Below are positions 19,205-63,178 of a DNA stretch of 64,000 nt, piece by piece. Position numbers and translations under genes: made by a program. Location of the stretch: the IMG/VR virus record IMGVR_UViG_3300028797_000106. One strand, written 5' to 3'. Source of the stretch: a virus. Taxonomy: Duplodnaviria > Heunggongvirae > Uroviricota > Caudoviricetes. Each line of letters begins with the position of its first letter. Within the stretch, counting starts at the first letter, position 1. The notes under the pieces are model-generated. The model did not search any database and was not told the DNA's origin. It saw only the letters and a program-made list of their open reading frames with translations.

Positions 19205-19424
19205 ATTCGTATTGAAATGCAATGATTGGGAAGATCATAACAACCCAGTTTACGTCAAACATGTTGATTGGGAAAAAGACTGTTTATTTGGCTATGACGT
19301 AACTGAGGACATAACAAAAGCACAAAGATTTTCACAGAAAATGGCTTATAGGATGTCCGATGAAATTTACGATTCTTACTGTGATGATTTTGAGGTTATA
19401 AATACTTCGTATGAAGCAGATTAA
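19191..19424 (+). CDS. hypothetical protein
   Basis: Internal ATG minimising overlap with the previous gene. Confidence 0.4.
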   Translation: MMRNRFVLKCNDWEDHNNPVYVKHVDWEKDCLFGYDVTEDITKAQRFSQKMAYRMSDEIYDSYCDDFEVINTSYEAD

Positions 19425-20541
19425 CCGTTTTTGGAATGTTGCGGTACCGGGTATCGCCATTCCTACATGTATCGGTTCCGTCTATTGCTGGTCTCAGTTC
19501 TCAGCTGCACTTGCTGCAACATTCGGAATCTCTATTTTCGCAACCAACATCGGTTTCACCTTAATCATTTTCTTCCTTGGTGTCTTTGCGGCACTGTTTG
19601 GAAGGACGATTGAGGTCAACCCTAAGATTGGTGCCATTCTTTCAACCATCATTTTTGTTTCAGGCTTCTTGCTGTTGGGCCTTTCGGTCTATACAGGCTG
19701 CCTTCCGCTCTTTTACGCAGCGACTGCGACGATTGGCGCGGGCACAGGAATAGGATATGTCACACCGATTAAGACCTTGATGGCGTATTTTGCAGATCAT
19801 AAGGGTCTCGCAAGCGGTTTGGCTATCACAGGGTTCGGGCTGGCTAAGTTTATTGCCTCTCCGGCTATCGCTTTTTTGATTGCTGCTGTTCCTTTACATC
19901 AGGTTTTCATAATTCTTGGGCTCGTTTATGCAGTCATCATGACCATTTCAACGGTCTTGCTAAAGAAATATGATTTTGGACCTGAAATCCAGCACCCATT
20001 CAAGTATGGCGACATATTGAAGAGCAAAGAATGGTGGGCAATTTGGTTTATGTTCATGGTGAACATATCTTGTGGCCTATCTATCATCGCTCAGGAAGCA
20101 GCATTGCTTGGAATTATGGGCATTCCGTTCATCGCAGGCATTCTAGCGATGACAGCACTTGCCAATTCAGGTGGTCGCCTTGGTTTTTCAACATTGTCAG
20201 ATAAGATTGGCAGAAAGGCATCATACCATTTCGTTTGTTCATTTGGAATGCTCGGTGCTTTATTCTGTATCACGGGCAACCCTATCATGGCAGTAATCGG
20301 TATCTTCCTTTGTGAAGCAGCATACGGCGGAAATTTCTCTTGTTTGCCATCCTTGCTCGCAAAACGCTTTGGAATTTACAATTCTAGCAAGGTTCATGCT
20401 ATGACATTGACTGGCTGGAGCATTGGAGGCATCTTCGGACCGCTTCTAGCTGCGACATTTGTCGGCACCAACCTTTATATTGTGCTTGCTATCCTTTATT
20501 TCATTGCATTTACGGTAATGGAAATTTTCGTTCGGAAATAA
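19411..20541 (+). CDS. Major facilitator superfamily (MFS) transporter
   Basis: 376 aa, about 12 hydrophobic segments; MFS motif A-like GRLGFSTLSDKIGRK. Confidence 0.65.
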   Translation: MKQINRFWNVAVPGIAIPTCIGSVYCWSQFSAALAATFGISIFATNIGFTLIIFFLGVFAALFGRTIEVNPKIGAILSTIIFVSGFLLLGLSVYTGCLPLFYAATATIGAGTGIGYVTPIKTLMAYFADHKGLASGLAITGFGLAKFIASPAIAFLIAAVPLHQVFIILGLVYAVIMTISTVLLKKYDFGPEIQHPFKYGDILKSKEWWAIWFMFMVNISCGLSIIAQEAALLGIMGIPFIAGILAMTALANSGGRLGFSTLSDKIGRKASYHFVCSFGMLGALFCITGNPIMAVIGIFLCEAAYGGNFSCLPSLLAKRFGIYNSSKVHAMTLTGWSIGGIFGPLLAATFVGTNLYIVLAILYFIAFTVMEIFVRK

Positions 20542-24673: not shown

Positions 24674-25495
24674 ATGCTCACATTGATATGTCTTACAAAG
24701 TCATATCGGATAGAGGATTTTGCAGCCTGGTTTGATTACCATTCATCACTGGGCTGCAATTTGTGTATATTAGATAATGACTCAACGGTAGATATTCATA
24801 CATATGTTTCAGAACACATGCGTGAAGGAATTTACTACCGACACATTTCAGGTTTCGCCGACCAGTGGAACCTATTCCGAGATATTCTTAACAGTAGGAC
24901 TGAAATTCAGTTCAAGGACGATGAACTTGTAATGTTCCTTGATGACGACGAATTCTTGTGGTTTGACGATAGCAAGTATTCGTCCTTAGAATGCGCATTA
25001 AGGGCTCAGTTCAGACAGTTGAGTTGTCTATTATTGCCTGAAATTTTATTGTCCACGCATCATTTAACGGAGGGTAGAAGCCAGATCCTACCCCTTGCCT
25101 CGTATTACCGAAGAAATGATCTGGCAACACAAGGTAAAGCGTGCATCTTGTGGGATCATTGGTCAAAGTATTCATATAACCTGAAAGATTTTGAAATCGG
25201 ACATGTGCCTTGGATAAACAAAATCAGGATGTCAGATGTAGTTGGGTCAGATGTTTCAAAATCCACTTATGGGTTGTGTAAATATGATGCTCCTGTAAGA
25301 CTGTATCATTATCACATCAAGTCTGCGGAGGATTGGAAAATCAAGATTGAGCGCGGAAGTGCAGCAACAGCGGCAGAACCCGGAAAAAATGGATCATATG
25401 ATTCGGACATCTTAAAGAATAAGAAGTATGGAGGGTATGATATCCCGGATTTTACTATGAAGAGAAAGATGGAAACTTTGTTAGGAAAATCCTGA
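24674..25495 (+). CDS. Putative GT-A-fold glycosyltransferase
   Basis: Acidic DxD-like motifs LDNDSTV and FLDDDEFLWFDD; 273 aa. Confidence 0.35.
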   Translation: MLTLICLTKSYRIEDFAAWFDYHSSLGCNLCILDNDSTVDIHTYVSEHMREGIYYRHISGFADQWNLFRDILNSRTEIQFKDDELVMFLDDDEFLWFDDSKYSSLECALRAQFRQLSCLLLPEILLSTHHLTEGRSQILPLASYYRRNDLATQGKACILWDHWSKYSYNLKDFEIGHVPWINKIRMSDVVGSDVSKSTYGLCKYDAPVRLYHYHIKSAEDWKIKIERGSAATAAEPGKNGSYDSDILKNKKYGGYDIPDFTMKRKMETLLGKS

Positions 25496-28142: not shown

Positions 28143-28265
28143 GTATGCCGCAGAGTAATGAAGCTTTATTGGAATTAATGAACACTATATGGAAAGAACT
28201 TGAAAAACAACAAGACGCAAAGGAAAACCTCTGCGCCACAAAAACAACAGAAGAGGACAACTACG

Positions 28266-29408
28266 ATGTATTTGCCTAAGTTAGAAGATTACATGGAGAA
28301 GTTAGAAGAAAACGAAATCTTCTCCTGCGAAGACGAACATTTCATTGGGTTCAAGTATAATGCACCCACCACATACTTCCACTACTGGAATGATGTGACG
28401 CTGAATGCTCGCGGTATTGTCTTTGACAAGCAGACTGGTGAAATCGTTGCTCGTCCTTTCTACAAGTTCTTCAACTACCAGGAACTTATCAACGGTGAAG
28501 GACAGAGAACCGACATCCTAGATAAGGTTGAAGCATGCGGTTGGCGTCTTGACGCAACACAGTCTTTCCGTGTCATGGACAAGTTGGACGGTTCCTTGGG
28601 AATCGTCTTCTATGACAAGTATGCAGATAAGTGGCGTGTAAAGACAGGTGGTTCCTTCTCCTCTGACCAAGCAGTCTGGGGACAGAAGTGGTTTGACGAA
28701 AATGTGAACCTTTCTGAACTTGTGAAGGGATTTACTTACTGCTTTGAAATTATCTACAACGAAGATGTTCACCCAATCTCTTACGAAAAGGAAGAAATGG
28801 TATTGCTTGGCATCTGTGAAAACCAGACAGGTGTTGAATTGACTTTATCAGCTCTTCAAGACGCAGGAAAGGCATTGGGCGTTCGTGTTGCAGACATCAT
28901 CGAGTTCAAGAACTTTGATGAAGTTCTCCCTTATGCAACAAACCTTCCAAACACAAAGGAAGGCGTTGTGGTGACCTTCAAGAATGGGTTCAAGGTAAAG
29001 ATTAAGGGCAAGGAATTTTTGGAACTTCAAAGAAAGTTCCATAACATGACCGAAGACTTTATCTGGCAGAACTTTGACATCCACACTGGCAAGGTCCCAT
29101 TAGATATCATGGAAGCAATTCCTGAAGAAATGCCCGACTTAAAGCGCTATGCTGAAAACTTGGAAACAAGATACTTCGGCGGATGTGGAATGTCCTTCAC
29201 ACTGGCACATATCATGCGTGAAACCCACCAGGGCGACCGTCGCAAGATTTATGAAGAAGTGTCAAAGGGCATGGAAGCTATGCACATGAAGGGATTAACA
29301 GCAGCAGTAATGCGCTGTGTCACATTATTAGAACATGGAGAAACTCTTACTGACGAAACTTTGCCGGACTCCGTTCGCGAAATTGTCTACAAGACATTAA
29401 AGCCATAG
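28266..29408 (+). CDS. RNA ligase, Rnl1 family
   Basis: Motif I KLDGSL (T4 Rnl1 KEDGSL). RGIVFD...VARPFYKFFN matches T4 Rnl1 RGIMFE...IASRPMEKFFN. ATG at 28266; the ORF-track start at 28200 is TTG. Confidence 0.75.
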   Translation: MYLPKLEDYMEKLEENEIFSCEDEHFIGFKYNAPTTYFHYWNDVTLNARGIVFDKQTGEIVARPFYKFFNYQELINGEGQRTDILDKVEACGWRLDATQSFRVMDKLDGSLGIVFYDKYADKWRVKTGGSFSSDQAVWGQKWFDENVNLSELVKGFTYCFEIIYNEDVHPISYEKEEMVLLGICENQTGVELTLSALQDAGKALGVRVADIIEFKNFDEVLPYATNLPNTKEGVVVTFKNGFKVKIKGKEFLELQRKFHNMTEDFIWQNFDIHTGKVPLDIMEAIPEEMPDLKRYAENLETRYFGGCGMSFTLAHIMRETHQGDRRKIYEEVSKGMEAMHMKGLTAAVMRCVTLLEHGETLTDETLPDSVREIVYKTLKP

Positions 29409-36732: not shown

Positions 36733-37055
36733 TGATTGCTATCATAGCTAATATCTTTGGTTTCTTAGGTGCTATTCTTTTCGCATTAAAGACCGGCCCA
36801 CAAATTTGGGAGTGTTGGAAAAACAAATCTACCAAAGGAATAAGCAAGAAAATGCTCTTGATGGATCTTGGAGGTAATATCTTCAGTTTCATCTATATCT
36901 TTTGGTTAAGCTGGGTAGGCGGCATCTGGGCTATCTCAAATCTTCTGAATTATACGGTAGCAACGATCTTCCTACTTATTTTATTCTGGCTCATGTGGAA
37001 ATTCAAAAAAGACAAAAATACCCAGCAGAACGAATCTACTGGGGAAGAAGGTTAA
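36732..37055 (+). CDS. PQ-loop / SemiSWEET-like 3-TM membrane protein
   Basis: 107 aa, three hydrophobic helices; TGPQIWECWKNKSTKGIS resembles the PQ-loop motif. Confidence 0.45.
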   Translation: MIAIIANIFGFLGAILFALKTGPQIWECWKNKSTKGISKKMLLMDLGGNIFSFIYIFWLSWVGGIWAISNLLNYTVATIFLLILFWLMWKFKKDKNTQQNESTGEEG

Positions 37056-37531
37056 GCTAACTTTTTGATTGAGAAGCTGAACAATGAATTCTTGACATTA
37101 TCAAGATCATCATCGCCCCAGTGCTTTGGGCTAGAAGCGAACCATTCAATGCACTTATCTGCGACTCCCGCTTTGAAACGAGAATAGCCGGCAACACGCA
37201 CTCCACCGCGGAAGAAATCATCGCATTCCTCTCGGGTGAAGGTTCCCTTAACGCCTTTTGCTGAGTAGAGACAGTCGTGAATGATTGCTGCACAGTTGTA
37301 TGTCATGTTGTCCTTGTCCCACTTAGGGAGGAACCATGTGAATAGGCTCGGCACGCTTGCACCGTCAGTTCTAAACCCAGATTTCAGCTTCAAAGTCAAC
37401 ATGAACTTCTGATCATTCTTGGTATAAGTTGCGTGTATCATTCCGATGTTGTCCTTCAGTGTCCACACCTTTTTCTTCTCTTCAGCAAAAGTTAGGTTTC
37501 TGAATGCCAATTCTTTCAACGTAACTGCCAT
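37052..37531 (-). CDS. hypothetical protein, DUF1353-like
   Basis: FRTDGASVP and IHDCLY motifs. aggagg RBS before the ATG at 37531 (minus strand); the longer ORF-track start was rejected. Confidence 0.5.
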   Translation of the reverse strand: MAVTLKELAFRNLTFAEEKKKVWTLKDNIGMIHATYTKNDQKFMLTLKLKSGFRTDGASVPSLFTWFLPKWDKDNMTYNCAAIIHDCLYSAKGVKGTFTREECDDFFRGGVRVAGYSRFKAGVADKCIEWFASSPKHWGDDDLDNVKNSLFSFSIKKLA

Positions 37532-37612
37532 AATATACCTCCTATTGTATTTACAAAAATTCTTAAAAAATTGGGCACATAAATAATCCAAATACATTTC
37601 ATAGAGGAAATC

Positions 37613-38866
37613 ATGAACATTCTAATTACAAAGATGATGACTGCCCGCTTCACAACTATTACGGATAGAGAACGCCTTTGCGGTGGGTTTGATGCAATAT
37701 CATATCTCTTCCAGCGCATCGCCGAATCTTACCCGGAACATACATTCTACTATATTGGAGCATCTGATCTGAACGGAACCCGTATTGCTACCGCACCGAA
37801 TTTAATTGACCTCTACACGCCTATAAAGGCGTTTGCGAAGGCCAATGGATATGACCCGATTGCTCAAGATCTTGATAAGACAGGAAAACCTTTCTATCAA
37901 GCAGCGGTAGACTACTGTAAGGAAAACGGCCTGAAATTTGATTTGGCACTCTTCCAGTATGAACAAACATTCCCTATCGCTCATTATGCCGATGGGTACA
38001 TTTCAGAAAGAACAGGCAAGCCACTTCGCACGCTTGTTTCACACCGTCATTCAGCACATGCATTTGTTGTCGCTTCTGACCTCAATGTGCCGCTTTACTT
38101 GATGGTAGATGATCCTAGACAAATTGACCATTTGCCGGCTGACATTAAGCCACCTGTTAAGATCTTCGCTCAATGCAAGGGAACTGACCGCACACGCTAT
38201 TACATCAACAAAAAGGATAAGAAAGAGATCACAACTGAAATGGAATATGCGGAGCTTGAAAAATTTTATCTCTTGAAGAAAGAACGCATCAACTTTACCG
38301 ATCCGAAGAATGTCTGCCCAACACCGCTTGAACACTATGAAAAGGACATTGAATTTACAATGACATTGAACGGCAACAACATTGACCGTTATAACTTTGT
38401 AAAGGATTGGGTTCTCCCATATCGTCCTGACCAAATCGTTTATGGTAAGTGGACTGAAGGTCCAGTGGGCGAAGCAGTTAAGAAAGACGGACTGGAGAAA
38501 AACTTCGTTCGCCGCGGAATGAGCGAAATGGAAGACATCATGTGGCGCTCTAAGTACACGCTTGTCGCACCGCCTTCAGCTAAGACTGCGAACTTCGTGA
38601 CACAAAAGGTTTACTCGATGCTCTATTACGGCATCTTGCCTTTCTGGGTTAAGGGCACTTACGATGTTGACAACTTCTATACTGACATCAGCGACTTTTT
38701 GAAGGTTGACTCGCCTGAACAACTGTGGGAACGCATTGACTTTCTTGAAAAGAACCCTGCTGAATATCAGAAGCAACTGAACCTTGCCTATGAAGCGTTG
38801 CGTCCTGAATACTTTGAAAATGATTTCGTTCACCGTATTTTTGACTGCATCTTGAAAAAGAAATAA
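37613..38866 (+). CDS. Putative DNA glycosyltransferase, T4 beta-glucosyltransferase-like
   Basis: C-terminal VTQKVYSMLYYGILPF...FLKVDSPEQLWERIDFLEKNPAEYQKQL resembles T4 Bgt ITLRVWETMASDAVMLI...FYVNNRAELIDRVNELKHSDVLRKEML by recall. N-terminus is Rossmann-like. Confidence 0.4.
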   Translation: MNILITKMMTARFTTITDRERLCGGFDAISYLFQRIAESYPEHTFYYIGASDLNGTRIATAPNLIDLYTPIKAFAKANGYDPIAQDLDKTGKPFYQAAVDYCKENGLKFDLALFQYEQTFPIAHYADGYISERTGKPLRTLVSHRHSAHAFVVASDLNVPLYLMVDDPRQIDHLPADIKPPVKIFAQCKGTDRTRYYINKKDKKEITTEMEYAELEKFYLLKKERINFTDPKNVCPTPLEHYEKDIEFTMTLNGNNIDRYNFVKDWVLPYRPDQIVYGKWTEGPVGEAVKKDGLEKNFVRRGMSEMEDIMWRSKYTLVAPPSAKTANFVTQKVYSMLYYGILPFWVKGTYDVDNFYTDISDFLKVDSPEQLWERIDFLEKNPAEYQKQLNLAYEALRPEYFENDFVHRIFDCILKKK

Positions 38867-38906
38867 AACATCATACATAAATAAAACACGAATAATTTGT
38901 TAAATT

Positions 38907-39416
38907 TTGACTATGGATAAGAAATATACATTTGTTTTAGATTGTGACGGCGTATTTACCGATGGGACCTTTCATTACAATTCCGAAGGAAAATGTGAGA
39001 AGGTTTTCGGACCTGATGACGCCGATGCTTTAAAGTTGATTAAAGACAAGGTCAACATTGTCATTTGCTCAGCGGATCATAGAGGATTTCCGATTACGAA
39101 AAAGCGCATAAATGACATGGGTTTTGAACTGACACAAGTCAAGTCAAAAGACCGTCTTCAGTGGATAAAAGATAACTGCAAAGACACGACTGTCGCATAC
39201 ATGGGTGACTCATTCCAAGATGCACCGATCTTCAAAGGCGTAGATGTTCCGATCTGCACTTCTGACTCATCTATTGTCGCAAAGGCTTATGCGAAGTATG
39301 TCACACAAAGTAAGGGTGGAAACCGCGCCGTTGCAGAAGCAGTCTTCTATCTAGCTTGGGAATGGTTCAAACAGTCACCAGAAGAATTGATGAAGGAGAA
39401 TGGTTATGACATATAA
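38907..39416 (+). CDS. HAD-superfamily sugar-phosphate phosphatase, KdsC-like
   Basis: VLDCDGVFTDG motif I, GDSFQDAP, C-terminal SKGGNRAVAE, typical of the KdsC subfamily. Confidence 0.65.
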   Translation: MTMDKKYTFVLDCDGVFTDGTFHYNSEGKCEKVFGPDDADALKLIKDKVNIVICSADHRGFPITKKRINDMGFELTQVKSKDRLQWIKDNCKDTTVAYMGDSFQDAPIFKGVDVPICTSDSSIVAKAYAKYVTQSKGGNRAVAEAVFYLAWEWFKQSPEELMKENGYDI

Positions 39417-39984
39417 TGAAATGAAAGATAAGGTGCTTGCTGAATTGAACGAATCATTGAGTTCGTTTGATGAAAGAATGGTTGACCAGTTTGCTGAAGA
39501 ATTGGCCCACAAGCGCTGCGCTAACATTGTCGCATACGGTGCTGGAAGAATGGGTTATGGTATCAGAGCTTTCATTATGAGGCTCATGCATTTGGGTTTC
39601 CATGCTTATTGGTATGGTGACACGACCATCCCACATCTTGGACCGAACGATATGTTCTTGTTCGCATCTGCATCTGGCAAGACACAGTCTATCGTCAAGA
39701 TTGCTGAAATTGCGAAGGAAAAGACAGGTGTTCGCATCGCATCTTTGACAGGTGATGAAGAGTCACCGCTTGCCAAGCTTTCTGACTTGGTGATTAAATT
39801 TAAGGGATGCAACAACGGATTGAACTCCGAAAACTCTCCAGACAAGATTAACTCTATCCAGCCGATGACAACATTGAATGAACAGTCTGCGTTCATTTTC
39901 TTTGATTTGGTCTCTTTGAAGTTGATGGAAAAACTCAATGAAGACAACAAGACAATGAGCTTTAGACATAACCAGATTGAATGA
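39400..39984 (+). CDS. SIS-domain sugar-phosphate isomerase (6-phospho-3-hexuloisomerase / arabinose-5-P isomerase-like)
   Basis: VAYGAGRMGYGIRAFIMRLMHLGF...ASASGKTQSIV SIS signature, close to PHI/HxlB-type sequences. Confidence 0.65.
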   Translation: MVMTYNEMKDKVLAELNESLSSFDERMVDQFAEELAHKRCANIVAYGAGRMGYGIRAFIMRLMHLGFHAYWYGDTTIPHLGPNDMFLFASASGKTQSIVKIAEIAKEKTGVRIASLTGDEESPLAKLSDLVIKFKGCNNGLNSENSPDKINSIQPMTTLNEQSAFIFFDLVSLKLMEKLNEDNKTMSFRHNQIE

Positions 39985-40699
39985 TTTAGAAGGACAAGAA
40001 GATATGAATATAAGCACATCATTGATTTGTATGAACATGTCTCAGGTTGACAGGGACATAGAACGCATATTAAAGGCAGCAAATGGCGACCAAAGATTTA
40101 GCTGGTTTCATGCGGATGCGATGGACGGTCACTTCGTTCCGCGCCTTGGAATTTCACCAGAACTAATTCGTGACATTAAGACAACATTTCCGCAGATTCA
40201 CATTGACTCTCACTTGATGATTGCCGATCCGTTCACTTATGTGGATGTGATTGCTCCTTATTCTGATTGGGTTGTCTTCCATTATGAAGCAGTAACTGAC
40301 CCGATTAGAACATTGCAGAAGATGCGTAAGACATGGCCGAATGTTAAGGTGGGTCTCGCAATAAATTTGGCAACCGTCTTTAATCCTGAAATCATTAAGC
40401 TCTTTGACGGCGTGATGTTCATGGGAATCTCTCCAGGCGTTCTTGGAACGAATTCTTATCCAGAAATTGTGAAAGGCAAAATCGCAATGACGCCGAACCA
40501 TAAACATTACTTTGTAGATGGTTCTGTGAATTTCAACACAATTAAGGATTACCGTTTGATTAACCCGAACGGAACACTTGTTTGCGGTTCATCAACAATG
40601 TTTAAGAAAGATGAATTTACAGAAAATCTAAATCGTGAAGATTTGGTTGCTTACAACATCAACAGAATAAAGGACGCTATCGGATGCGAAAGACAGTAG
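39977..40699 (+). CDS. Ribulose-phosphate 3-epimerase family protein (Rpe/AlsE-like)
   Basis: FHADAMDGHFVPRLG, DSHLMI, HYEA, GLAINLATV, MGISPGVLGT align with Rpe catalytic motifs. Alternative ATG at 40004. Confidence 0.6.
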   Translation: MNDLEGQEDMNISTSLICMNMSQVDRDIERILKAANGDQRFSWFHADAMDGHFVPRLGISPELIRDIKTTFPQIHIDSHLMIADPFTYVDVIAPYSDWVVFHYEAVTDPIRTLQKMRKTWPNVKVGLAINLATVFNPEIIKLFDGVMFMGISPGVLGTNSYPEIVKGKIAMTPNHKHYFVDGSVNFNTIKDYRLINPNGTLVCGSSTMFKKDEFTENLNREDLVAYNINRIKDAIGCERQ

Positions 40700-42336
40700 T
40701 TATTCCCGCTGCGGGTCTTGGCTCACGCCTTGATGAATTCACAAAGAATTACAACAAAGCGATGTGCACACTTGGCCCTAAGCCAGTAATTTCTTACATC
40801 ATTGAAAAATTTACGAAGGACGATGAAATCATCATCTTGTTGGGATACAAAGGTGACTTGCTGAAACAGGTCGTGAAAGCGTGTTATCCTGACTGGAATA
40901 TCACATTTGTGAATGTTGATGTATTCCAGGGTCCGGGTTCGGGATTGGGATATTCATTGTCTTGTGCTAAGGAACTTTTGCAGAAGCCTTTCATGTTCTG
41001 GTCTAATGACTCACTGATTGATGAAAACATTGATGAATTTGATTATGACCATAACTTTATGGTTTTGTCAACATTCAGACCGACAAAGGCAGATTCTTAT
41101 CGTCATGCTCGCATCGGTAAGTATCAGGTTCAGAGCATTTTACCGAAGGGAGAATATGATCCTGAAGGTAAGACAACATTGCCTTACATCGGTATCTCTT
41201 ATGTCAAGGACTATAAACAGTTCTGGCAAGTTCAAGAAGACATGTATGAATTGTTCGTCAATGCCGGTGAAAGTGCTGGCTTGAATAACTTGAAGGACAT
41301 GAGATATGTTGTCACCAAAACTTGGACAGATACAGGCAACAAGGAAGAACTGATTGCTGCGAAGGAACGCTTCTCGAAGAACATGGAAGCAACAATTTTG
41401 GAAAAGCCTGAAGAAGCAATTTGGTTCATTGACAATAAAGTTGTGAAATTCCACATTGACCCGAAGTTCATTGAAGGTCGTGTGAAACGCTTCCATACAT
41501 TCATCAATGATGAGATGAAGAACCGCAACATCTTGATGCCGAAGCTTTTGAGCAATTCAGCGAATGTGTATGTGTATGAAAAGGCAGAAGGTAAGGTTAT
41601 GTCAACTGATGTAACTCCGTCTTCATTTGGCCTATTCATTCAGTTGTTCTTTGACAGCGTTAAAGAAAGAAGCGTCTCTGACGAATACAAGTTGAACATC
41701 TATAACGACTTCTATAAAGACAAGACTCTCAAAAGAATTCAGAAGTATTGTGAAGGATGGGAAGAACTTGATGGCGACTGTATTATTAACGGTTGTGTAT
41801 GTAATTCAGCCAGAAAGGTGATTGAAAACATTGACTGGGAAATGATCTCAAGAAGAGCCGTTATCACCGACAACTATCATGGAGACTTCCACTTGGAAAA
41901 CATTTTGGTTGACCGTCGTGAAAAGGGCAACACAAAGTGGATCATGCTTGACTGGAGACAAAACTTCGGAAAGACATACGATGGCGACATTTATTATGAC
42001 TTCGCTAAAATGTGGCATTCGTTGATTGTTAACCATCACATGGTGAAGGACAACTTGTTCAGCTTCCGTCAAAAGAATAACGGTGAATATGAAATTGACA
42101 TTCATCGCTCATTCATTGACACTGAATGTGAAGAAAAATTCAAGGATTTCTTGGTTCACTCTAAGTATGACGCCGACTTGGCAGAATTCTTGACAGCAGT
42201 CATCTTCTTGAACATCGCTGCTTGTCATGTGGGCGTTTATTCAACTTTCTTGTTCTATTTAGGTAAGTACCTGATAAACAAGTTTATTAAGAAACATCCT
42301 GATTACTTGAAACCTGATAGCGGTTTAATCTACTAA
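40684..42336 (+). CDS. Bifunctional sugar-1-phosphate nucleotidyltransferase / APH-fold sugar kinase
   Basis: N-terminal VVIPAAGLGSRL NTP-sugar pyrophosphorylase motif. C-terminal HGDFHLENILV...MLDWRQ Brenner-type kinase motif as in choline/aminoglycoside/N-acetylhexosamine kinases. Confidence 0.6.
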   Translation: MRKTVVIPAAGLGSRLDEFTKNYNKAMCTLGPKPVISYIIEKFTKDDEIIILLGYKGDLLKQVVKACYPDWNITFVNVDVFQGPGSGLGYSLSCAKELLQKPFMFWSNDSLIDENIDEFDYDHNFMVLSTFRPTKADSYRHARIGKYQVQSILPKGEYDPEGKTTLPYIGISYVKDYKQFWQVQEDMYELFVNAGESAGLNNLKDMRYVVTKTWTDTGNKEELIAAKERFSKNMEATILEKPEEAIWFIDNKVVKFHIDPKFIEGRVKRFHTFINDEMKNRNILMPKLLSNSANVYVYEKAEGKVMSTDVTPSSFGLFIQLFFDSVKERSVSDEYKLNIYNDFYKDKTLKRIQKYCEGWEELDGDCIINGCVCNSARKVIENIDWEMISRRAVITDNYHGDFHLENILVDRREKGNTKWIMLDWRQNFGKTYDGDIYYDFAKMWHSLIVNHHMVKDNLFSFRQKNNGEYEIDIHRSFIDTECEEKFKDFLVHSKYDADLAEFLTAVIFLNIAACHVGVYSTFLFYLGKYLINKFIKKHPDYLKPDSGLIY

Positions 42337-42349
42337 TCAGAAAATTTTT

Positions 42350-42380
42350 GGGCGGCTCTTCGGGGCGCCCATTTCTTTTA
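42350..42380 (+). terminator. Intrinsic terminator (imperfect hairpin) followed by TAAATTTG box
   Basis: gggcggctcttcggggcgccc hairpin then atttctttta; preceded by gaaaattttt. Confidence 0.5.
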
Positions 42381-42430
42381 TAAATTTGTATTAAGGTTCA
42401 TAACATAAATGTTGAAAAGGAGGAACCTAA

Positions 42431-45115
42431 ATGGATGATAAGATCCAGCGTGCTTATAAGCACATCTTTTATGATAATTGGTCAAAGCAAATTTGTGTCC
42501 GATATGTTGGTGATACCGAGTTCACTAAAATTCCGTATAAGAAAGATTATTGGGTAAAAGATCCGACTGGTAAGTCTGAATGGAAGGACTTACACGGAAC
42601 ACCAATGATTAAGAAGCCTCTTACTGATAAAGAAATTGTTAAGACTTTGAAACAGTCAGGCGTTACTGTCGCCGAATCCGATTTGAAGGAAGAAGTTAAG
42701 TGGGCGCATGATGTATATGACAATGTTGAACTGACTGCGAACGTCAATGACTTCAACATTGGCTTTTATGATATTGAAGTTGCGGTACCGGAAGATGGTG
42801 GTTTTCCAAAGCCTGAAGAAGCTCGTTTTCCGATTAACTTGATTACATTTTATTCTACAAAGACCAAGACAACATATACTTGGGCTCTCAATCTAAACCT
42901 GCAAGAAGATGACATTGTTAAGAATGTAAGGAACTTCACAAATGAAGTTGATATGTTGAAGGACTGGCTGACTTGGTTCGCAAATGAGCACTTTGACATT
43001 ATCACAGGTTGGAACTCCGTTCTGTTTGACTTGCCTTACATCATTAACCGAATTAAGAACTTACGCATTCAACATGGCATCAAAAAGGAATTGGAAAGAG
43101 CATTGTCACCGTTAGGCAAGATGCCTGAAGCAAAGGATATCTCTGATAAAAAGCAGGGAAATGCCTTGGGTTCATCGTATGAAATACCAGCCTTGCTGCA
43201 TATTGACTACATGGACTTGTATAAGACATTTGCCAAACATGACCCGTTGCCATCATACTCACTGAACTATGTTTCAAAGTTGGTGACTGGCAAAGGTAAG
43301 TTGGAATATGAAGGAACCATCAATACGATTTGGCAGACTGACGGTCAGAAGTTCGGTCAGTATAACGTCGTTGACGTTCTTGACTTTGTTGAGATAGAAG
43401 AAGTTTGCCAGCTGTTCCCACTTATCATTGAATATGCGTATGATTGCTTGGTGACATTGGACAAGATTTACAACAAGGTGCCGACTACTGAAGGTTATAT
43501 CTTGAGATACATTCATGGCCGTCACATTGTTATGAATGACCGACCTGACCATCACGAAGACTGGTGGCGAGCCGAAGAATGTTTCAAAATCAGAAAACCT
43601 GATGGTTCAGATTACTTCCAGAACTGTGAATGGGAAAACGGTAAATATGAATTTGAAGAGTTCCATGTTAAAGCGGGTTACTGTTATGACTTCCCTGGCC
43701 GTTATGATGACTGTATGTCTTTTGACATTACTTCGTCATACCCTCACCATATCATGCAGTTCAACATCTCGCCAGAAGTTAAAATCAGACACCCGAAGAA
43801 AGAAGATATTCTGAGCGGAAAGGTCATAGCATCTGATGTGAACGAAGTCGGGTTCTTGAGAACCGATGATGCAATTCTTCCAAGTATCGTTAAGAAGGTA
43901 TTTGATGAAAGAAAGCATTATAAAGATCTGATGAAGGAAGCCAAGAAGAAGGGTGATAAACACATGGCGGCTATTTATGATAACCGTCAGGGCATCAAGA
44001 AGATCATTATTAACTCGATGTATGGTGTCTGCTTGGCACCGGGCTTCCACATGTATGACATTGACTGTGCAAGATCCATCACTCGCTGTGCCCGTGTCAC
44101 TTTGAGAGACTGGCTGAAGAAATCACTTGACGCATACTATGTGTCAACTGCATTGTTGTCAGATGTTCAGAAGTACTTTAACATCAAGTTGAAGAACACA
44201 AAGCCGCTTGAAATCAAGAACCGTGAATGCGTCTGCGTTCATGCTGATACTGACTCACTGTATTTCTGCATTAATGAATTGAAGATCAGACTTCGTCAAG
44301 AAGGAATGCATATCCAGACTGAAGAAGAACATCGTCAGTTCTATGCTACTGCTGAACAAATGTTCCAAGACTTCTTCGTGAAGGTTCTTGAAATCAGAGC
44401 AAAGAAGAGCCAGACGACAAACAAGATCAAGTATAACAGAGAAAACATTTTCTCTAACATGTTCTGCTTCGCAAAGAAACTTTATATCGGAAACGTCATT
44501 GACGCTGAAGGAACGCCGTATCCGTTTGACGCTGCAAAGCACAAGATAATGGGTGTTGGTATTAAGCGTTCTGATATGCCGGAATTCTGTAAGCAGGCTG
44601 CTGAAAAACTCGCATTTGATATCTGTGCTGGACAGGATTACGAAAAGTCACTTGAATTCATTCATAACACTTACGATGAATTCTGTGCTGCTGGACCTGA
44701 TGCAGTGTCAGCGAAGAAATCGGTTTCGGAATACACGAAGTATGTCACTGAACCAATTGACTCGTATGTCAAGAATGGTCTGCACTTTGATAAAGGACAA
44801 CCGTTCAATGCGAAGTGTGCACTGGCATATAACTATGTGATTACCAAACATAAGTTGCCGCTCATGCCGATTATGAACGGAAACAAATTTAACTATGTGT
44901 ATGTCAAGCCGACTAACCGATATAGAATTGAAGCGACTGCGTTCGTCGGAGCATGGCCGAAAGAATTCTATAAGATCTTTGAGGTTGACTATGAAACAAT
45001 GTTCTCGAAAACATTCTTGCCGTTGTTTGAGTCAATGTTCAAGGTAAAGAAATGGATAGGAGAAAAGGAAAGCATCTCACTGGAAAGAGGCGGTCTCGCA
45101 GCTTTCTTTGGATAG
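42431..45115 (+). CDS. DNA polymerase, family B (T4 gp43-like)
   Basis: Exo I FYDIEV; motif A DITSSYPHHIM; motif B KKIIINSMYGV; motif C VHADTDSLY; 894 aa. Confidence 0.9.
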   Translation: MDDKIQRAYKHIFYDNWSKQICVRYVGDTEFTKIPYKKDYWVKDPTGKSEWKDLHGTPMIKKPLTDKEIVKTLKQSGVTVAESDLKEEVKWAHDVYDNVELTANVNDFNIGFYDIEVAVPEDGGFPKPEEARFPINLITFYSTKTKTTYTWALNLNLQEDDIVKNVRNFTNEVDMLKDWLTWFANEHFDIITGWNSVLFDLPYIINRIKNLRIQHGIKKELERALSPLGKMPEAKDISDKKQGNALGSSYEIPALLHIDYMDLYKTFAKHDPLPSYSLNYVSKLVTGKGKLEYEGTINTIWQTDGQKFGQYNVVDVLDFVEIEEVCQLFPLIIEYAYDCLVTLDKIYNKVPTTEGYILRYIHGRHIVMNDRPDHHEDWWRAEECFKIRKPDGSDYFQNCEWENGKYEFEEFHVKAGYCYDFPGRYDDCMSFDITSSYPHHIMQFNISPEVKIRHPKKEDILSGKVIASDVNEVGFLRTDDAILPSIVKKVFDERKHYKDLMKEAKKKGDKHMAAIYDNRQGIKKIIINSMYGVCLAPGFHMYDIDCARSITRCARVTLRDWLKKSLDAYYVSTALLSDVQKYFNIKLKNTKPLEIKNRECVCVHADTDSLYFCINELKIRLRQEGMHIQTEEEHRQFYATAEQMFQDFFVKVLEIRAKKSQTTNKIKYNRENIFSNMFCFAKKLYIGNVIDAEGTPYPFDAAKHKIMGVGIKRSDMPEFCKQAAEKLAFDICAGQDYEKSLEFIHNTYDEFCAAGPDAVSAKKSVSEYTKYVTEPIDSYVKNGLHFDKGQPFNAKCALAYNYVITKHKLPLMPIMNGNKFNYVYVKPTNRYRIEATAFVGAWPKEFYKIFEVDYETMFSKTFLPLFESMFKVKKWIGEKESISLERGGLAAFFG

Positions 45116-45125
45116 GAGCAACTAA

Positions 45126-45866
45126 ATGAATAACTTTGAAGTAATGAAAGAGTGGAAAGAAATCTGCAACGGAGTATGCGACTACATCTCAACTGAACGA
45201 TGTCAAAAGTTCGGTATGCAGGTTGGTCGCATAACCGAAACTAGCATGATAAATGGCCGTCGCACGATGCCGATGATATTGAAAGACGACGACGAATACC
45301 GAAAGGAATTTGGCAATAGGGTCAGAAGCCACATTCAATTCTGGCTTGACGATTCTATTACCATTCGTTGTAAGGATCCGATCTTTTGCAGAAACACAGG
45401 TAAAGATTCCCTTGAACTTTGGAACTACATGCTTTTGACTGACCAAGAAACTGGAAAGAAGTATCTCGGCGCGGACCGTATTATCGTAACTCCTTGGGGC
45501 GGTCGCCTTAAGGATATGATTGGGACACCGTTCAACATTGTTGAGACAGTCGGCAAATGTGTGTATGTTGGCGAGCATCATGAACCGCCCGAGGCCAGCC
45601 TTGCTCGTGTAAAGTGTTTTCTTGAGTTGCAGATGGATCTTATTCCTATTCATGAAGCACACTGGAAAGTATATGATTCGTATAAAATGCGTAAGGCAGC
45701 AATAGACGCAGAATATGAAAAGCAGATGCAAGAACTTAACGATGAACTGAGAGCAAATGCGACAAAGACAATAAATAAACAACACATCTTATGCGAAAGG
45801 ACTTTATGTTGCGTTGACCGACAAAAGATCCTTGACGGTGAGAAATTTCAATATAAGGAGCTCTAA
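45126..45866 (+). CDS. hypothetical protein
   Basis: 246 aa. Confidence 0.5.
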   Translation: MNNFEVMKEWKEICNGVCDYISTERCQKFGMQVGRITETSMINGRRTMPMILKDDDEYRKEFGNRVRSHIQFWLDDSITIRCKDPIFCRNTGKDSLELWNYMLLTDQETGKKYLGADRIIVTPWGGRLKDMIGTPFNIVETVGKCVYVGEHHEPPEASLARVKCFLELQMDLIPIHEAHWKVYDSYKMRKAAIDAEYEKQMQELNDELRANATKTINKQHILCERTLCCVDRQKILDGEKFQYKEL

Positions 45867-48408: not shown

Positions 48409-48564
48409 ATGAAAAAGAAATACATCAAACCCGAAATGGAAATCCTTGATACAGGCGTTCAGTCACAGTTGCTGGCAGGCTCCAGCGACCCTTGGTGGAA
48501 AGAACCTGACCCTCCTGAAGAAGGCTGCGAAAGCTCATGGCATTGCGGCGGTTGGGGGAACTAA
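48409..48564 (+). CDS. hypothetical small Cys/Trp-rich peptide (51 aa)
   Basis: MKKKYIKPEMEILDTGVQSQLLAGSSDPWWKEPDPPEEGCESSWHCGGWGN; starts right after the upstream stop and ends at the GIY-YIG start. Confidence 0.25.
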   Translation: MKKKYIKPEMEILDTGVQSQLLAGSSDPWWKEPDPPEEGCESSWHCGGWGN

Positions 48565-49208
48565 TGACTAACATTAAGAACTGTGTTTACTTGGTTCGCT
48601 GTGACGGACATGATAGAGGCGTGTATAAGATTGGTTTGACAACTGACCTTGATACACGCATCAAGTCTTTAAGTTCAGCAACAGAAGCGCCCGGCCCATT
48701 TTATCCGTTGGCTGTTATTGAAACTGATAAGTATCGCTTATTGGAATCATACATGCATAGCAGATATACGGACGAACGCATGTTTCCTAATAAAGAATTT
48801 TTCAAATTCATTGATGAAGAAGGAAACGAATATGTTGATGATGTCATTGATGAAATGCAACGCCTTGCAGAATTAATGAATGCAAAGATTACTGTTTTTG
48901 ATGACAACATTGAAAAGGATGAAAAGAAAGGTCGAGCAAAGCGTTTCTATTTCAAGAACATTGGATTGAAAGGCGGAGACGAAGTTATCCTTGACATTCC
49001 TAAAAATGAAAACACGCCGCATACTTATTATGTTGCAGCTGACGGCAGACATATTGTTGAAGACGCGGCTGACATAAACAATAAAGAAGTTTGGTTGTCG
49101 GTTTCTAAACTGATGCAAGAATACACTGATACCCGTCAGTGGTCAGTTCATCCTGAATGGTGGTATCACGACGGAGTAAGTTGTGCGTCAAAAATCCAAA
49201 ATAACTAA
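48564..49208 (+). CDS. GIY-YIG homing endonuclease-like protein
   Basis: VYLVRCDGHDRGVYKIGLTTDLDTRIKSL is a GIY-YIG motif; C-terminal basic region. Confidence 0.55.
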   Translation: MTNIKNCVYLVRCDGHDRGVYKIGLTTDLDTRIKSLSSATEAPGPFYPLAVIETDKYRLLESYMHSRYTDERMFPNKEFFKFIDEEGNEYVDDVIDEMQRLAELMNAKITVFDDNIEKDEKKGRAKRFYFKNIGLKGGDEVILDIPKNENTPHTYYVAADGRHIVEDAADINNKEVWLSVSKLMQEYTDTRQWSVHPEWWYHDGVSCASKIQNN

Positions 49209-52349: not shown

Positions 52350-52913
52350 ATGTCAGTTGTTATCATGTGTGGTTTGGACCGATGCGGGAAATCTACACAA
52401 ATAGAAAAGATCAAGAATTATTTCAAAGAAAAAGGCAGAGACTCGACAGTAATTCACTATTCCGGCATTGATGTTCCAGAAAGTGGACCATTCAAGCAGG
52501 GTGCACAATTCGTTGCATCAAGAGCAAGATATGATGACATGCTTCACCTTGCTGATGAAATGACTGACGCTGAACAAGTTCTGATTTTTGACCGAGCACA
52601 CCTCGGGGAAATGGTTTACTCTCCGCTTTATAGAAAGTATAATGGGGAATATGTTTTTGAACTCGAACAGAAGTATCCGAACTTACTTGAGAAGGCACTT
52701 CTATTTGTTGTCATTGACACTCCAGAGCATCTACTTGCTCGTGAAGACGGTATGAGTTTCTCTAACAAGATTGAAGATAAGCAGAAAGAGATTGAATGTT
52801 TTAAGAAGGCATTCGGTATGAGCAACATCAAGAATAAAGAGCTTATTGACATATCTGACAAGAGCATTGAAGATGTTTGGAATATCATTAAACAAAAATT
52901 GGAGAATGTATGA
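52350..52913 (+). CDS. Deoxynucleoside monophosphate kinase (thymidylate-kinase-like)
   Basis: IMCGLDRCGKSTQ P-loop like Tmk GxDGxGKST; sits directly upstream of the hydroxymethylase. Confidence 0.6.
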   Translation: MSVVIMCGLDRCGKSTQIEKIKNYFKEKGRDSTVIHYSGIDVPESGPFKQGAQFVASRARYDDMLHLADEMTDAEQVLIFDRAHLGEMVYSPLYRKYNGEYVFELEQKYPNLLEKALLFVVIDTPEHLLAREDGMSFSNKIEDKQKEIECFKKAFGMSNIKNKELIDISDKSIEDVWNIIKQKLENV

Positions 52914-53659
52914 TTGAAAATTTTGAAATGAAAGAAGATTTGGAAATGCGTCCTGACATGGCTCGAAATGACGCAGTTCTTAATGAAATTCATCAGATGC
53001 TTGCTTATAAGTATCTGTCCGGCGACAAGGTTGGAAATACATGGGAACTGATTGACCAGCATTTGACTCTCAACCCGCTTCAGCCTTATGTGAATGTTCT
53101 TGGCCGTCCGTTCAAACACGACTACCTTGAAAAAGAACATAAGTGGTATATGTCGCAGGATCTGTCTATTAAGGGATGGATGGACGACATCAAGATTTGG
53201 CAGTGGTGTGCATCTAAGGATGACAAGCAGCTCATCAACTCGAATTATGGTTGGTGCGTGTTCTCTGAAGAAAACGGTTCTCAATATGAAAACTGCATTG
53301 AGAAGATGAAGGCCGATGTGAACACAAGAGAAGCATTGATGATTTACACAAGACCGTCAATGCACAAGGACGCTGTTGAAAATGGTAAGCATGATTTCAT
53401 GTGTACTGTCTCTGCACAGGCGATGATTCGTGACGGCAAGCTTTATTACATTGTGACTCAAAGATCTTGTGACTTGGTGACTGGCTTCTCGTTTGACTTC
53501 CCATGGCACTGCTTCGTTTATCAGATGATGTTCCAAGAATTGAAGAAGACATACCCTGAATTGGAAGTGGGTAGCATCTTCTATAACATCGGGTCTTTGC
53601 ATGTTTATGAAAGACACGAAAATCTCTTGAAGAAATGGGCAGCATATAACGAAGTATAA
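52910..53659 (+). CDS. Deoxycytidylate (pyrimidine) 5-hydroxymethyltransferase, T4 gp42-like
   Basis: KIWQWCASKDDKQLINSNYGWCVF, ALMIYTRPSMHKD, HDFMCTVSAQAMIRDGK and YNIGSLHVYERH closely track T4 gp42 blocks (KIWQQVASSKGEINSNYGWAIW, GIMIYTRPSMQFD, SDFMCTNTVQYLIRDKK, WNVGSLHVYSRH) by recall. ThyA-fold active-site Cys present. Confidence 0.8.
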   Translation: MIENFEMKEDLEMRPDMARNDAVLNEIHQMLAYKYLSGDKVGNTWELIDQHLTLNPLQPYVNVLGRPFKHDYLEKEHKWYMSQDLSIKGWMDDIKIWQWCASKDDKQLINSNYGWCVFSEENGSQYENCIEKMKADVNTREALMIYTRPSMHKDAVENGKHDFMCTVSAQAMIRDGKLYYIVTQRSCDLVTGFSFDFPWHCFVYQMMFQELKKTYPELEVGSIFYNIGSLHVYERHENLLKKWAAYNEV

Positions 53660-61723: not shown

Positions 61724-63178
61724 TTGGAGAATTTTAGCATGAAGTCAGATTTTCAGAAATTTCTTACAGAAGGCACAATGCCCAGCACAGGCAACATTGT
61801 GGTATTCTATGGCAGATATAACCCACCACATGTAGGGCACTTGGGCGTTGTGAAGAAACTCGCTGCGATGGCTAAGGAACAAGGCGGCGAAGCAATTATT
61901 TCACTTTCTGGCTCAGAAGACCCTGAAAAGAACCCGCTTACATTTGAAAAGAAGCGTCATTATGTTGAACTGATGTGTAAGCCTTATGGCGTCACAGTTG
62001 ATGACAAGCCTTGTAATAAGGTCTATGATCTTATCCGTGACTGCGCATTCCTTTCACAGAAGCGCGGCGGCGGCACCGTAACATTGCTTGCTGGTTCTGA
62101 CCGCGTCCCTGCATATCAGGGTTTCGCAAAATCACTTCTGAAGAAATATCAAGGCCGTGGTGAAATTCTCGATGTAAATGTTGTTGTTCAGGAAGCAATG
62201 GCTCGTGATTCGGCAGAAGCATTCTCAGCATCACAGATGCGTGCTTTCATTAAGAATGGCGACATTGAAGGCTTCGTTGAGCATGCTCCGTTTGACAACA
62301 AGGAAGAAGCTGAACAGATGTATCATGACTGCGCTAAGGGCATGAACATTGAAGAACATGCTTATCAGCCAGTTTTGGGTAAGTTGCTCGGTGAAGCACA
62401 CATTTCCCACGATGCAAGCGATGTAAGAGCTGCAGCAATGGAAATGGGTAAGGAAGTTTCCGAACACATCAATGAGCTGACCGGAGAACCTGACCATTTG
62501 TGGTTTATCGGCGGTTGTGTTCGTGATGAAGTTTTGGGCAAGACACCGAACGATTTTGACCTTATCACGACAATGTATTACAAGACCTATGCCGAACTGT
62601 TCAACACAAAGGACATTCGTTTCAGAGGTAAGCAGATCATCGTTGTGCCGATTGTGGCAGGTGAAGAATTTGAAACTGCTTGCTTGCATAAGGGAGAAAA
62701 GATTGAAGACAACCTTCAGTTCCGCGATTTGACAATGAATGCTATGGCTCAGGACCTAGCTACTGGAAAGATTGTTGACCCGTGCGGTGGCTTGAAGGAT
62801 ATGAAGATGAAGAAGCTCAACCTAACGAATTTCATGAAGGAAGCGATGGCAGCAGGCGGTCAGCCGGTTGCAGTTCTTCGTGCCATTCGTTTCTACTCAA
62901 CATACGGTTGGGACTTCACCGCTGACTCGCTAGAGACATTGAAGAAATTTAGCGAAGTAAACAAGGGCGTGCTTAAGGTGACACCTCGTCAGTTTGACAA
63001 GGACTGGCAGAAACTTATTAAGGGTTCAAATGTTCAGGGCGCCTTAGATTTGATTGTGGAACTTGGCTTCCATGATTACCTAATGAAATCACAGCCGCTT
63101 TACGCTGAATACCGCAATAAGGATGCTGAAGAAAAACCAGAGGCAGAAGAACCAGTTGAAGGAGCTGAAGAAGAATAA
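61724..63178 (+). CDS. Fusion protein: NadM-type NMN adenylyltransferase-like domain plus CCA/poly(A)-polymerase-type nucleotidyltransferase domain
   Basis: N-terminal VVFYGRYNPPHVGHLGVVKKLA (archaeal NadM GRFQPFHKGHL type). C-terminal WFIGGCVRDEVLGKTPNDFDLITT (class II CCA head-domain GGxVRDxLLG...DxD). Confidence 0.55.
   Translation: MENFSMKSDFQKFLTEGTMPSTGNIVVFYGRYNPPHVGHLGVVKKLAAMAKEQGGEAIISLSGSEDPEKNPLTFEKKRHYVELMCKPYGVTVDDKPCNKVYDLIRDCAFLSQKRGGGTVTLLAGSDRVPAYQGFAKSLLKKYQGRGEILDVNVVVQEAMARDSAEAFSASQMRAFIKNGDIEGFVEHAPFDNKEEAEQMYHDCAKGMNIEEHAYQPVLGKLLGEAHISHDASDVRAAAMEMGKEVSEHINELTGEPDHLWFIGGCVRDEVLGKTPNDFDLITTMYYKTYAELFNTKDIRFRGKQIIVVPIVAGEEFETACLHKGEKIEDNLQFRDLTMNAMAQDLATGKIVDPCGGLKDMKMKKLNLTNFMKEAMAAGGQPVAVLRAIRFYSTYGWDFTADSLETLKKFSEVNKGVLKVTPRQFDKDWQKLIKGSNVQGALDLIVELGFHDYLMKSQPLYAEYRNKDAEEKPEAEEPVEGAEEE

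Follow-up and report, generated by a model that had tools for sequence, protein, structure and literature searches.

In phage T4, glucosylation of 5-hydroxymethylcytosine (5-hmC) in DNA, which involves gp42, gp1 and the alpha- and beta-glucosyltransferases, draws on UDP-glucose of the host, and to our knowledge T4 encodes no sugar-activation genes. Arabinosyl-5-hydroxycytosine is made by the Afh clusters of RB69, DLP3, HY126 and their relatives (Lee et al. NAR 2026, PMC13326640). The AfhE enzyme of HY126 converts arabinose-5-phosphate into the 1,5-bisphosphate and later uridylylates arabinose-1-phosphate, and AfhF removes the 5-phosphate (PMC13326640, section 27). A metagenomic cluster, "contig 53", joins a HAD-APH bifunctional enzyme, a cytidylyltransferase and a GT-B enzyme resembling T4 beta-glucosyltransferase (BGT), which together give heptosyl- and di-heptosyl-5-hmC in E. 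coli; ThyS, epimerase and APH genes are frequent neighbours of GT-B DNA transferases (bioRxiv 10.1101/2023.12.21.572611). Here, we examine a 64,000-nucleotide stretch (the window) of a phage genome of the Caudoviricetes, IMG/VR record IMGVR_UViG_3300028797_000106, in which a cassette of five genes probably encodes a nucleoside diphosphate (NDP)-sugar pathway feeding a DNA 5-hmC glycosyltransferase; we put the probability of this at roughly 0.7. A first-pass annotation made from the letters of the stretch had proposed such a pathway, and fold searches, family scans, the active-site signature of a ThyA homologue and gene neighbourhoods support it. The same annotation took a self-contained sugar-activation route to a DNA transferase for a possibly new system, a kind that is already known from RB69, DLP3, HY126 and the heptosyl-5-hmC cluster. 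Its mention of arabinosyl-hmC in RB69 is outdated, as this phage makes arabinosyl-5-hydroxycytosine via a D169N ThyA homologue (PMC13326640).

Six enzymatic units have recognisable folds and families, the ThyA homologue bears an hmC-type signature, and the linkage of sugar module, transferase and ThyA homologue recurs in other phages. In the pathway that we infer, from the sugar and its carrier nucleotide through the sequence of reactions to DNA as the acceptor, an AlsE-like 3-epimerase would convert a host ketose phosphate, most likely fructose-6-phosphate (F6P), into its 3-epimer (allulose-6-phosphate), which an SIS isomerase of the 6-phospho-3-hexuloisomerase (PHI) family would turn into an aldose phosphate. 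The C-terminal APH-fold kinase of a fusion protein would phosphorylate the anomeric hydroxyl to give a sugar-1,n-bisphosphate, a KdsC-type HAD phosphatase would strip the distal phosphate and the N-terminal nucleotidyltransferase (NTase) domain of the fusion would form the NDP-sugar. A BGT-like GT-B enzyme would then move the sugar onto 5-hmC of replicated phage DNA, and the modified base would come from a gp42-like dCMP hydroxymethylase and a thymidylate-kinase-like (Tmk-like) kinase, whose genes lie 10 kb downstream within the replication module to which the cassette belongs. The finished modification would shield phage DNA against host nucleases.

Results

The cassette and its enzymes

The five open reading frames (ORFs) lie on the + strand where the first-pass annotation had placed them (Table 1), and they are real genes, since homologues with 50–88% identity occur in the same order in several IMG/VR, ENA and NCBI contigs (the contigs compared carry L-numbers below). 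We abbreviate the 417-aa transferase and its family as GT417 and the 550-aa NTase-kinase fusion as NTK. Homologues and an independent gene call point to 38913, 39406 and 40004 as the likely starts of the HAD, SIS and epimerase genes, and disfavour the TTG at 39977. The transferase stop (38866) is followed by the HAD start at 38907/38913, the SIS gene overlaps the HAD gene, 20 bp lie between SIS and epimerase, and the epimerase gene shares its last 16 nt with NTK; such overlaps and short gaps suggest a translationally coupled operon. Upstream, a divergent DUF1353 gene probably starts at 37531, which leaves an 81-bp AT-rich intergenic region where a Shine-Dalgarno-like AGAGGAAA precedes the transferase ATG. 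A consensus scan for promoters and terminators gave no more sites than shuffled sequence and was hence uninformative. The cassette has the GC content of the remaining window and genome (0.41–0.42), and the gene after it encodes a gp43-like DNA polymerase of family B (PolB, 42431–45115).

The genome is that of a T4-like phage of roughly 264 kb, and an identical epimerase sequence was found on a 264-kb contig. Megablast of positions 37000–45200 against 50,697 phage records returned zero matches; judged by its sequence, the phage is without a sequenced close relative among isolates. In PHROGs, SIS and NTK match families of "unknown function" only, and transferase, HAD and epimerase match none.

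Table 1. Location, strand and basis of the features discussed (window positions unless a contig is named).
Feature	Position	Strand	Basis or predicted role
GT-B glycosyltransferase, 417 aa, T4 beta-glucosyltransferase-like fold	37613..38866	+	predicted DNA 5-hmC glycosyltransferase
KdsC-type (HAD-IIIA) sugar-phosphate phosphatase	38907..39416, probable start 38913	+	predicted distal (C5/C6) phosphate removal
SIS-domain sugar-phosphate isomerase, PHI/HxlB family	39400..39984	+	TIGR03127, 1m3s
Ribulose-phosphate-binding-barrel 3-epimerase (Rpe/AlsE family), 231 aa	40004..40699; ORF reaches TTG 39977	+	PF00834
N-terminal sugar-1-phosphate NTase domain of the 550-aa fusion (ORF 40684..42336)	40684..41388	+	PF00483/PF12804
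C-terminal APH/choline-kinase-fold kinase domain of the fusion	41389..42336	+	PF01636; predicted anomeric sugar(-phosphate) kinase
Tmk-like nucleotide kinase, predicted hm-dCMP kinase	52350..52913	+	PF02223 E 5.5e-11; adjoins ThyA homologue
gp42-type dCMP hydroxymethylase (ThyA homologue)	52910..53659	+	identity to gp42, Asp169/Asp177
C5-cytosine DNA methyltransferase homologues in other phages	L002 5363–6580; L018 1698–2990, 9194–10468; L019 9264–10481; L020 9206–11898; L021 12–2535; L022 12438–13709		

The transferase has a GT-B fold of two Rossmann domains that is nearest to BGT among solved structures, and two methods place T4 BGT at the top of its structural matches by a clear margin. Three residues, D110, D167 and D177, are (nearly) invariant across the family. 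The first-pass annotation had surmised a T4 Bgt-like transferase here; a failure of this product to match DNA glycosyltransferase folds, which formed part of its refuting scenario for the DNA-sugar pathway, did not occur.

Family scans bore out the earlier domain assignments of the donor-synthesis enzymes (KdsC-type HAD, SIS, Rpe-like epimerase and NTase-APH fusion), and in the profile and structure searches of the ORFs folds and families agree with an NDP-sugar pathway. The HAD translation contains the motif DxDGVxTDG and matches the KdsC subfamily TIGR01670 (E 1e-17; 64.6 bits, under the 107-bit cut-off) as well as KdsC entries of the PDB (about E 1e-13), with all scores below equivalog cut-offs; its gene is kept inside the module in L011, L018, L021 and L022. 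The SIS protein reaches 146.1 bits against the PHI/HxlB model TIGR03127, short of the cut-off of 160, and aligns over its full length with B. subtilis YckF/HxlB (1m3s, E 3e-29). Its matches to other sugar-phosphate isomerases have E-values of 5e-7 (arabinose-5-phosphate isomerase, API; 3etn), about 4e-4 (GutQ/KpsF models) and about 1e-4 to 1e-3 (GmhA), and tblastn against RB69 p055 aligned 41 aa only (E 7e-4). With its best matches in PHI, it is not identified as a KdsD/GutQ-type API. Nor does it qualify as a classical PHI of the ribulose monophosphate pathway, given the score below the TIGR03127 cut-off and the lack of a hexulose-6-phosphate synthase (HPS) partner: neither the cassette nor any related locus examined holds an HPS or OMPDC-family gene.

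The epimerase scores 87 bits against PF00834, and the Rpe and AlsE models tie at 95–97 bits, with far higher cut-offs (AlsE 96 against 271, Rpe 95 against 213). It keeps the catalytic His/Asp/His/Asp and the Met cushions. Its beta8 loop has the length seen in AlsE (T196-S197-G198), one residue longer than in RPEs, as in 119 of the 120 family members, and the AlsE-like beta7 motif DGS is present in 116 of them.

The AlphaFold2 model of the fusion protein has a pLDDT of 92.9 and finds its structural neighbours in MurU, LicC and APH-type kinases; the motif HGDFHLEN and the metal-binding Asp are invariant across 44 homologues. At the sequence level, the NTase domain matches the sugar-1-phosphate NTases GalU, HddC and RmlA, and HddC is among its best matches in both sequence and structure. 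Run against PDB sequences, the NTK family profile gave matches to the NTase domain only and retrieved no AfhE structure. Against RB69, the family hidden Markov model found weak similarity (25.8 bits for p052 and 11.9 bits for p053) and BLAST none. A BLAST comparison of the cassette proteins with the RB69 arabinose cluster gave no match for HAD, NTK or transferase, and these are therefore not orthologues of the RB69 genes.

Predicted supply of 5-hydroxymethylcytosine

Downstream of UvsX, the ThyA homologue is flanked by the Tmk-like kinase on one side and by a gp41-like helicase on the other. Its annotation as a gp42-type dCMP hydroxymethylase is confirmed by sequence identity (39.7% to T6 gp42 versus 19.5% to RB69 gp48) and by active-site residues. 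In 5-hydroxy-dCMP (5hodCMP) synthases, the residue equivalent to position 169 of E. coli ThyA is Asn, and dCMP specificity goes with Asp at position 177 (PMC13326640, section 28). The window protein keeps the catalytic Cys146 and has Asp at both positions, as in gp42, and therefore the predicted precursor is 5-hmC, not 5-hydroxycytosine; the alignments show QRSCD...GFSFD in the window protein and RSQN in RB69 gp48. With Asp169 retained, it does not have the signature of a D169N flavin-dependent 5hodCMP synthase, and 5-hydroxycytosine as the base was ruled out on this residue and on the greater identity to gp42. The pair of Tmk-like kinase and ThyA homologue also occurs in RB69, DLP3 and RL38J1 (PMC13326640 Table 1), and in L013 and L018.

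Gene neighbourhoods in other phages

SIS, epimerase, NTK and HAD genes co-occur with a GT417-family transferase in at least four phage lineages, often with a gp42-type ThyA homologue a few kb away. The order GT-HAD-SIS-epimerase-NTK-PolB is kept in L006, L007 and L008 (IMG/VR) and in L013/L014, a 266-kb NCBI contig binned into a "Bacilli" metagenome-assembled genome (MAG) with UvsX-Tmk-ThyA downstream. Three other lineages with module and transferase have an NTK that is about 50–55% identical. Their gene orders are Tmk, methyltransferase (MTase), GT417 paralogue, SIS, epimerase, NTK, HAD, GT417 homologue, MTase, two ORFs and ThyA homologue in L018; SIS, epimerase, NTK, HAD, GT417-family gene, MTase, DUF6378 and ThyA homologue in L022; and SIS, epimerase, NTK, GT417-family gene and HAD in L021. 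A D169-type ThyA homologue is found within 6 kb of the module in L018 and L022. The isolated Pseudoalteromonas phage XG4, L019 and L020 have a GT417 homologue beside a ThyA homologue and an NTase or NTase-kinase, without SIS and epimerase. A GT417-family gene thus stands near a D169-type ThyA homologue in six independent contexts (the window, XG4, L018, L019, L020 and L022), and Asp169 is present in every ThyA homologue linked to such genes.

The NTK family comprises 313 sequence clusters and the epimerase family 318, with many matches on contigs of equal size. When 185,579 species genomes were scanned for the pattern, the one full-length NTK match fell on a phage contig that had been binned into a MAG.

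Other features of these loci were recorded as well. In six further phage contexts that also have gp42-type ThyA homologues, C5-cytosine DNA methyltransferase homologues directly adjoin transferases of the GT417 family (Table 1); among the larger window ORFs scanned there is none. Between SIS and epimerase, L008 (6437–7288, and the equivalent position of L004) has a free-standing 283-aa ORF with an N-terminal zinc-finger-like motif that the window does not have, likely a homing-endonuclease-type insertion. L011 is of megaphage size, with a Mom-like protein upstream of the module and S-adenosylmethionine synthetase, dUTPase and Pol III alpha downstream. In Marine virus AG-345-E15 (L010, MH319741; 7704–19208), a 32%-identical NTK homologue and a cupin PMI-like isomerase belong to a sugar-nucleotide island that also contains an APH kinase, HAD proteins including a small HAD, two SDR epimerase/dehydratases, a 2-oxoglutarate oxygenase, a GHMP kinase and a GDP-mannose-dehydratase-like enzyme. 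An NTK beside this isomerase suggests that the NTK and HAD core joins different isomerases.

Other genes in the window

A 30%-GC island in the genome of about 42% GC (13876–16491) has the look of a recent acquisition. It encodes a sugar-1-phosphate transferase of the Stealth family (Stealth_CR2, 110 bits), an ORF of unknown kind and a phosphoribosyltransferase-like ORF, and may be a further consumer of nucleotide sugar. A second transferase, with DNA or another molecule as its acceptor, may be encoded at 24674–25495, where a GT2-like protein (Glyco_tranf_2_4, 29 bits) is found. The window also encodes a major-facilitator-superfamily transporter (19411–20541; PF07690, E 1e-21), a DUF2828/DUF7788 protein (6430–8019, 145 bits) and a T5orf172/MUG113 domain protein (48537–49208). 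A fusion of a cytidylyltransferase-like (NMNAT-type) and a Nudix domain (152–1234) suggests phage NAD metabolism, and a T4 Rnl1-like RNA ligase (28200–29408) together with a protein combining a cytidylyltransferase-like part and a poly(A) polymerase/CCA-adding head domain (61724–63178) suggests a tRNA repair toolkit.

Discussion

Order of the steps and nature of the sugar

The first-pass annotation had the phosphatase release a free sugar, which the kinase would then phosphorylate. The enzyme families it named agree with our results; the order, while possible, is less likely than kinase, phosphatase, NTase. The kinase likely acts before the phosphatase, judging by analogy with AfhE and AfhF of HY126 and with ADP-heptose synthesis, which run in this order. 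Heptose activation proceeds through GmhA, the HldE kinase, GmhB and HldC, and precedents for the free-sugar order are the salvage enzymes NahK, AmgK and FKP.

As to the sugar, our tentative candidate is a hexose derived from allulose-6-phosphate, e.g., D-allose or D-altrose, which we would back at somewhat below even odds. In the work of Chan et al. from 2008 (Biochemistry), the extra loop residue of AlsE reportedly lengthens the site for hexulose-6-phosphate, and its deletion switches the preference to ribulose-5-phosphate (Ru5P). The AlsE-length beta8 loop and the DGS motif of the window epimerase point to conversion of F6P into allulose-6-phosphate, from which allose-6-phosphate or altrose-6-phosphate would follow. 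Arabinose, one of the options in the first-pass annotation, is disfavoured because the isomerase is PHI-type, not API-type, and the phosphate site of the epimerase has AlsE-like features. Heptose may still be in play, given the HddC match of the NTase domain and the heptosyl-5-hmC precedent. Routes based on hexulose-6-phosphate (Hu6P), with PHI first and the epimerase second, were set aside: they yield no aldose, and the elongated epimerase site suits a 2-hexulose-6-phosphate.

It is tempting to hypothesize that these jumbo T4-like phages have an undescribed DNA base, 5-hmC O-glycosylated with a rare 3-epimerised aldose (D-allose, D-altrose), whose donor would be made de novo from F6P by a phage-only module in which the AlsE-like epimerase and a repurposed PHI isomerase set the sugar, and kinase and phosphatase replace a phosphomutase. 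We consider this possible, with the odds against it. If it is true, phages would have in the NTK and HAD core, combined with API, cupin PMI-like or PHI plus AlsE-like isomerases, a general means of varying the sugars on their DNA.

Alternative explanations

Several points weigh against the pathway as we read it. PHI is a 2-keto/3-keto isomerase, not an aldose-ketose isomerase. By analogy, its reaction centre would lie at the phosphate distance expected for a pentulose-5-phosphate; a hexose would fit this less well than a pentose, in conflict with the argument from the epimerase loop. The transferase is without sequence-level similarity to GT63/T4 BGT in comparisons with the Pfam T4 glucosyltransferase model and PDB sequences, and a dCTPase was not identified within the 64-kb window. 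In L009, the module lies amid head-fibre-, lectin-like and tail-fibre-like genes with no GT417 homologue nearby; in L011 (a 656-kb ENA contig, 5049–12129), the order is DUF4422 transferase-SIS-epimerase-NTK-HAD and the GT417 homologue is not adjacent. In some phages, then, the sugar of the module may be meant for acceptors of another kind. Finally, the phage is known from metagenomes alone and the evidence is wholly in silico.

The same cassette logic could operate on a pentose, which we judge unlikely and still worth serious attention. The PHI-like isomerase would then be an API analogue acting on Ru5P, which the epimerase would feed from xylulose-5-phosphate (Xu5P), or Xu5P would be converted into lyxose-5-phosphate or xylose-5-phosphate. 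The product, NDP-arabinofuranose or NDP-xylo/lyxofuranose transferred to 5-hmC, would amount to a non-orthologous replacement of the arabinose route of RB69/HY126 on another base. Going by known reactions, PHI turns Hu6P into F6P by acting on the two carbons that stand 3 and 4 positions away from the one with the phosphate, and register and C-2 stereochemistry would be those of Ru5P to arabinose-5-phosphate; the epimerase, moreover, scores as high against Rpe as against AlsE models. Characterised phage cytosine pentosylations all employ a set of isomerase, kinase-NTase and HAD (PMC13326640; PMC12838424). However, nearly all of the 120 epimerase family members share the AlsE-length loop and the DGS motif, and the isomerase is far nearer to PHI than to API. 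A host-like Rpe that merely topped up the supply would hardly stay strictly conserved in the module across lineages that are 47–50% identical.

It is improbable that the NDP-sugar pathway is real and its acceptor not DNA, i.e., that the sugar decorates capsid or fibre proteins of the virion or a polymer of the host envelope and that the Bgt-like fold is merely a minimal GT-B. The fibre-gene setting of L009 and the DUF4422 neighbour in L011 would fit such a role, as would the Stealth-family sugar-phosphate transferase and the GT2-like protein of the window. Both the margin by which T4 BGT leads the structural matches and the six contexts with D169-type ThyA homologues, which lie within replication and not structural modules, argue instead for DNA. 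That the fusion protein is a LicC/LicA-type kinase and cytidylyltransferase for phosphocholine (or another amino-alcohol) making CDP-choline, with unrelated metabolic genes for neighbours, can hardly be upheld: it is always flanked by SIS, epimerase and HAD genes, its sequence-level matches are sugar-1-phosphate NTases, and LicC and APH-type structural neighbours are shared by the RB69 and DLP3 homologues of AfhE, a demonstrated arabinose-5-phosphate kinase/UDP-arabinose pyrophosphorylase per Lee et al. (PMC13326640). A Kdo/CMP-Kdo pathway, which the first-pass annotation had named in a scenario that would overturn the DNA-sugar pathway, was ruled out: the partner enzymes KdsA (Kdo8P synthase) and KdsB (CMP-Kdo synthetase) are missing, and the NTase does not belong to the type required.

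Comparison with known systems

Whether a given restriction, CRISPR or type IV system can attack a phage depends on the sugar hypermodifications of its DNA, and these modifications also yield enzymes for epigenetic sequencing and DNA labelling. To these, the cassette would add a pre-replicative hmC pathway joined to a self-supplied, probably rare, sugar nucleotide, all in a compact set of five genes and 4.7 kb, and it would add new activities to the PHI and AlsE families. The wide spread of the module among phages and its restriction to them, with about 300 sequence clusters, suggest that the DNA sugar of a phage is set by swapping the upstream isomerase/epimerase.

The closest likeness is to the Afh systems. 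Both would lead from a ketose phosphate of the pentose phosphate pathway to an NDP-sugar with an SIS isomerase, a fused NTase and APH-fold kinase, a HAD phosphatase and GT-B DNA transferase(s), and both are placed by a gp43 polymerase and a pair of ThyA homologue and Tmk-like kinase, within a replication module of the T4-like kind. In its domain order and its structural neighbours, the NTK agrees with RB69 gp52:53 and DLP3 gp82, which are homologues of the characterised AfhE (PMC13326640 Table 1, section 27), although it is only distantly related to the RB69 fusion in sequence. In contrast, the base enzyme of the window is gp42-type (Asp169) and that of Afh a D169N 5hodCMP synthase; the isomerase is PHI-type instead of API-type and is joined by an AlsE-like 3-epimerase; the HAD protein is KdsC-type (169 aa) and not small and 1xpj-like (128 aa); and the transferase is nearest to T4 BGT, not to GT4-type enzymes.

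With contig 53, the cassette shares the coupling of kinase, phosphatase and nucleotidyltransferase to a BGT-like GT-B enzyme and a non-glucose sugar on 5-hmC. By its description, contig 53 fuses HAD with APH, whereas here the NTase is fused with APH. There, 5-hmC arises post-replicatively through an MTase and a TET-like oxygenase and a host heptose phosphate is used without isomerase or epimerase; here, 5-hmC would be made pre-replicatively by the gp42-like enzyme. The locus resembles T4 in its gp42-like dCMP hydroxymethylase, the BGT-like fold of its transferase and a position near gp43, uvsX and gp41. It differs in that four window enzymes would make the donor and that the transferase is no sequence-level member of GT63.

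Two bacterial pathways offer further parallels. ADP/GDP-heptose biosynthesis (GmhA, HldE/HddA, GmhB, HldC/HddC) has the same succession of SIS isomerase, anomeric kinase, HAD-IIIA distal phosphatase and nucleotidyltransferase; unlike there, the window kinase has an APH fold instead of a ribokinase or GHMP fold, the isomerase is PHI-like and not GmhA, a 3-epimerase is added and the predicted target is DNA, not lipopolysaccharide. The epimerase shares its beta8 loop length and DGS motif with AlsE of E. coli D-allose catabolism, and the AlsE/RpiB pathway run in reverse (F6P to allulose-6-phosphate to allose-6-phosphate) would give a rare aldohexose phosphate. The window isomerase is SIS/PHI-type, however, and not RpiB/LacAB-type, and its pathway would run in the anabolic direction, followed by nucleotide activation. 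In the literature searched, we found no description of a module with a PHI-type isomerase and an Rpe/AlsE-type epimerase. What sets the cassette apart from Afh are the base-forming enzyme, the type of isomerase, the extra epimerase, the HAD subfamily and the type of transferase and, from T4, a donor that the phage would make itself; the sugar may be new to DNA.

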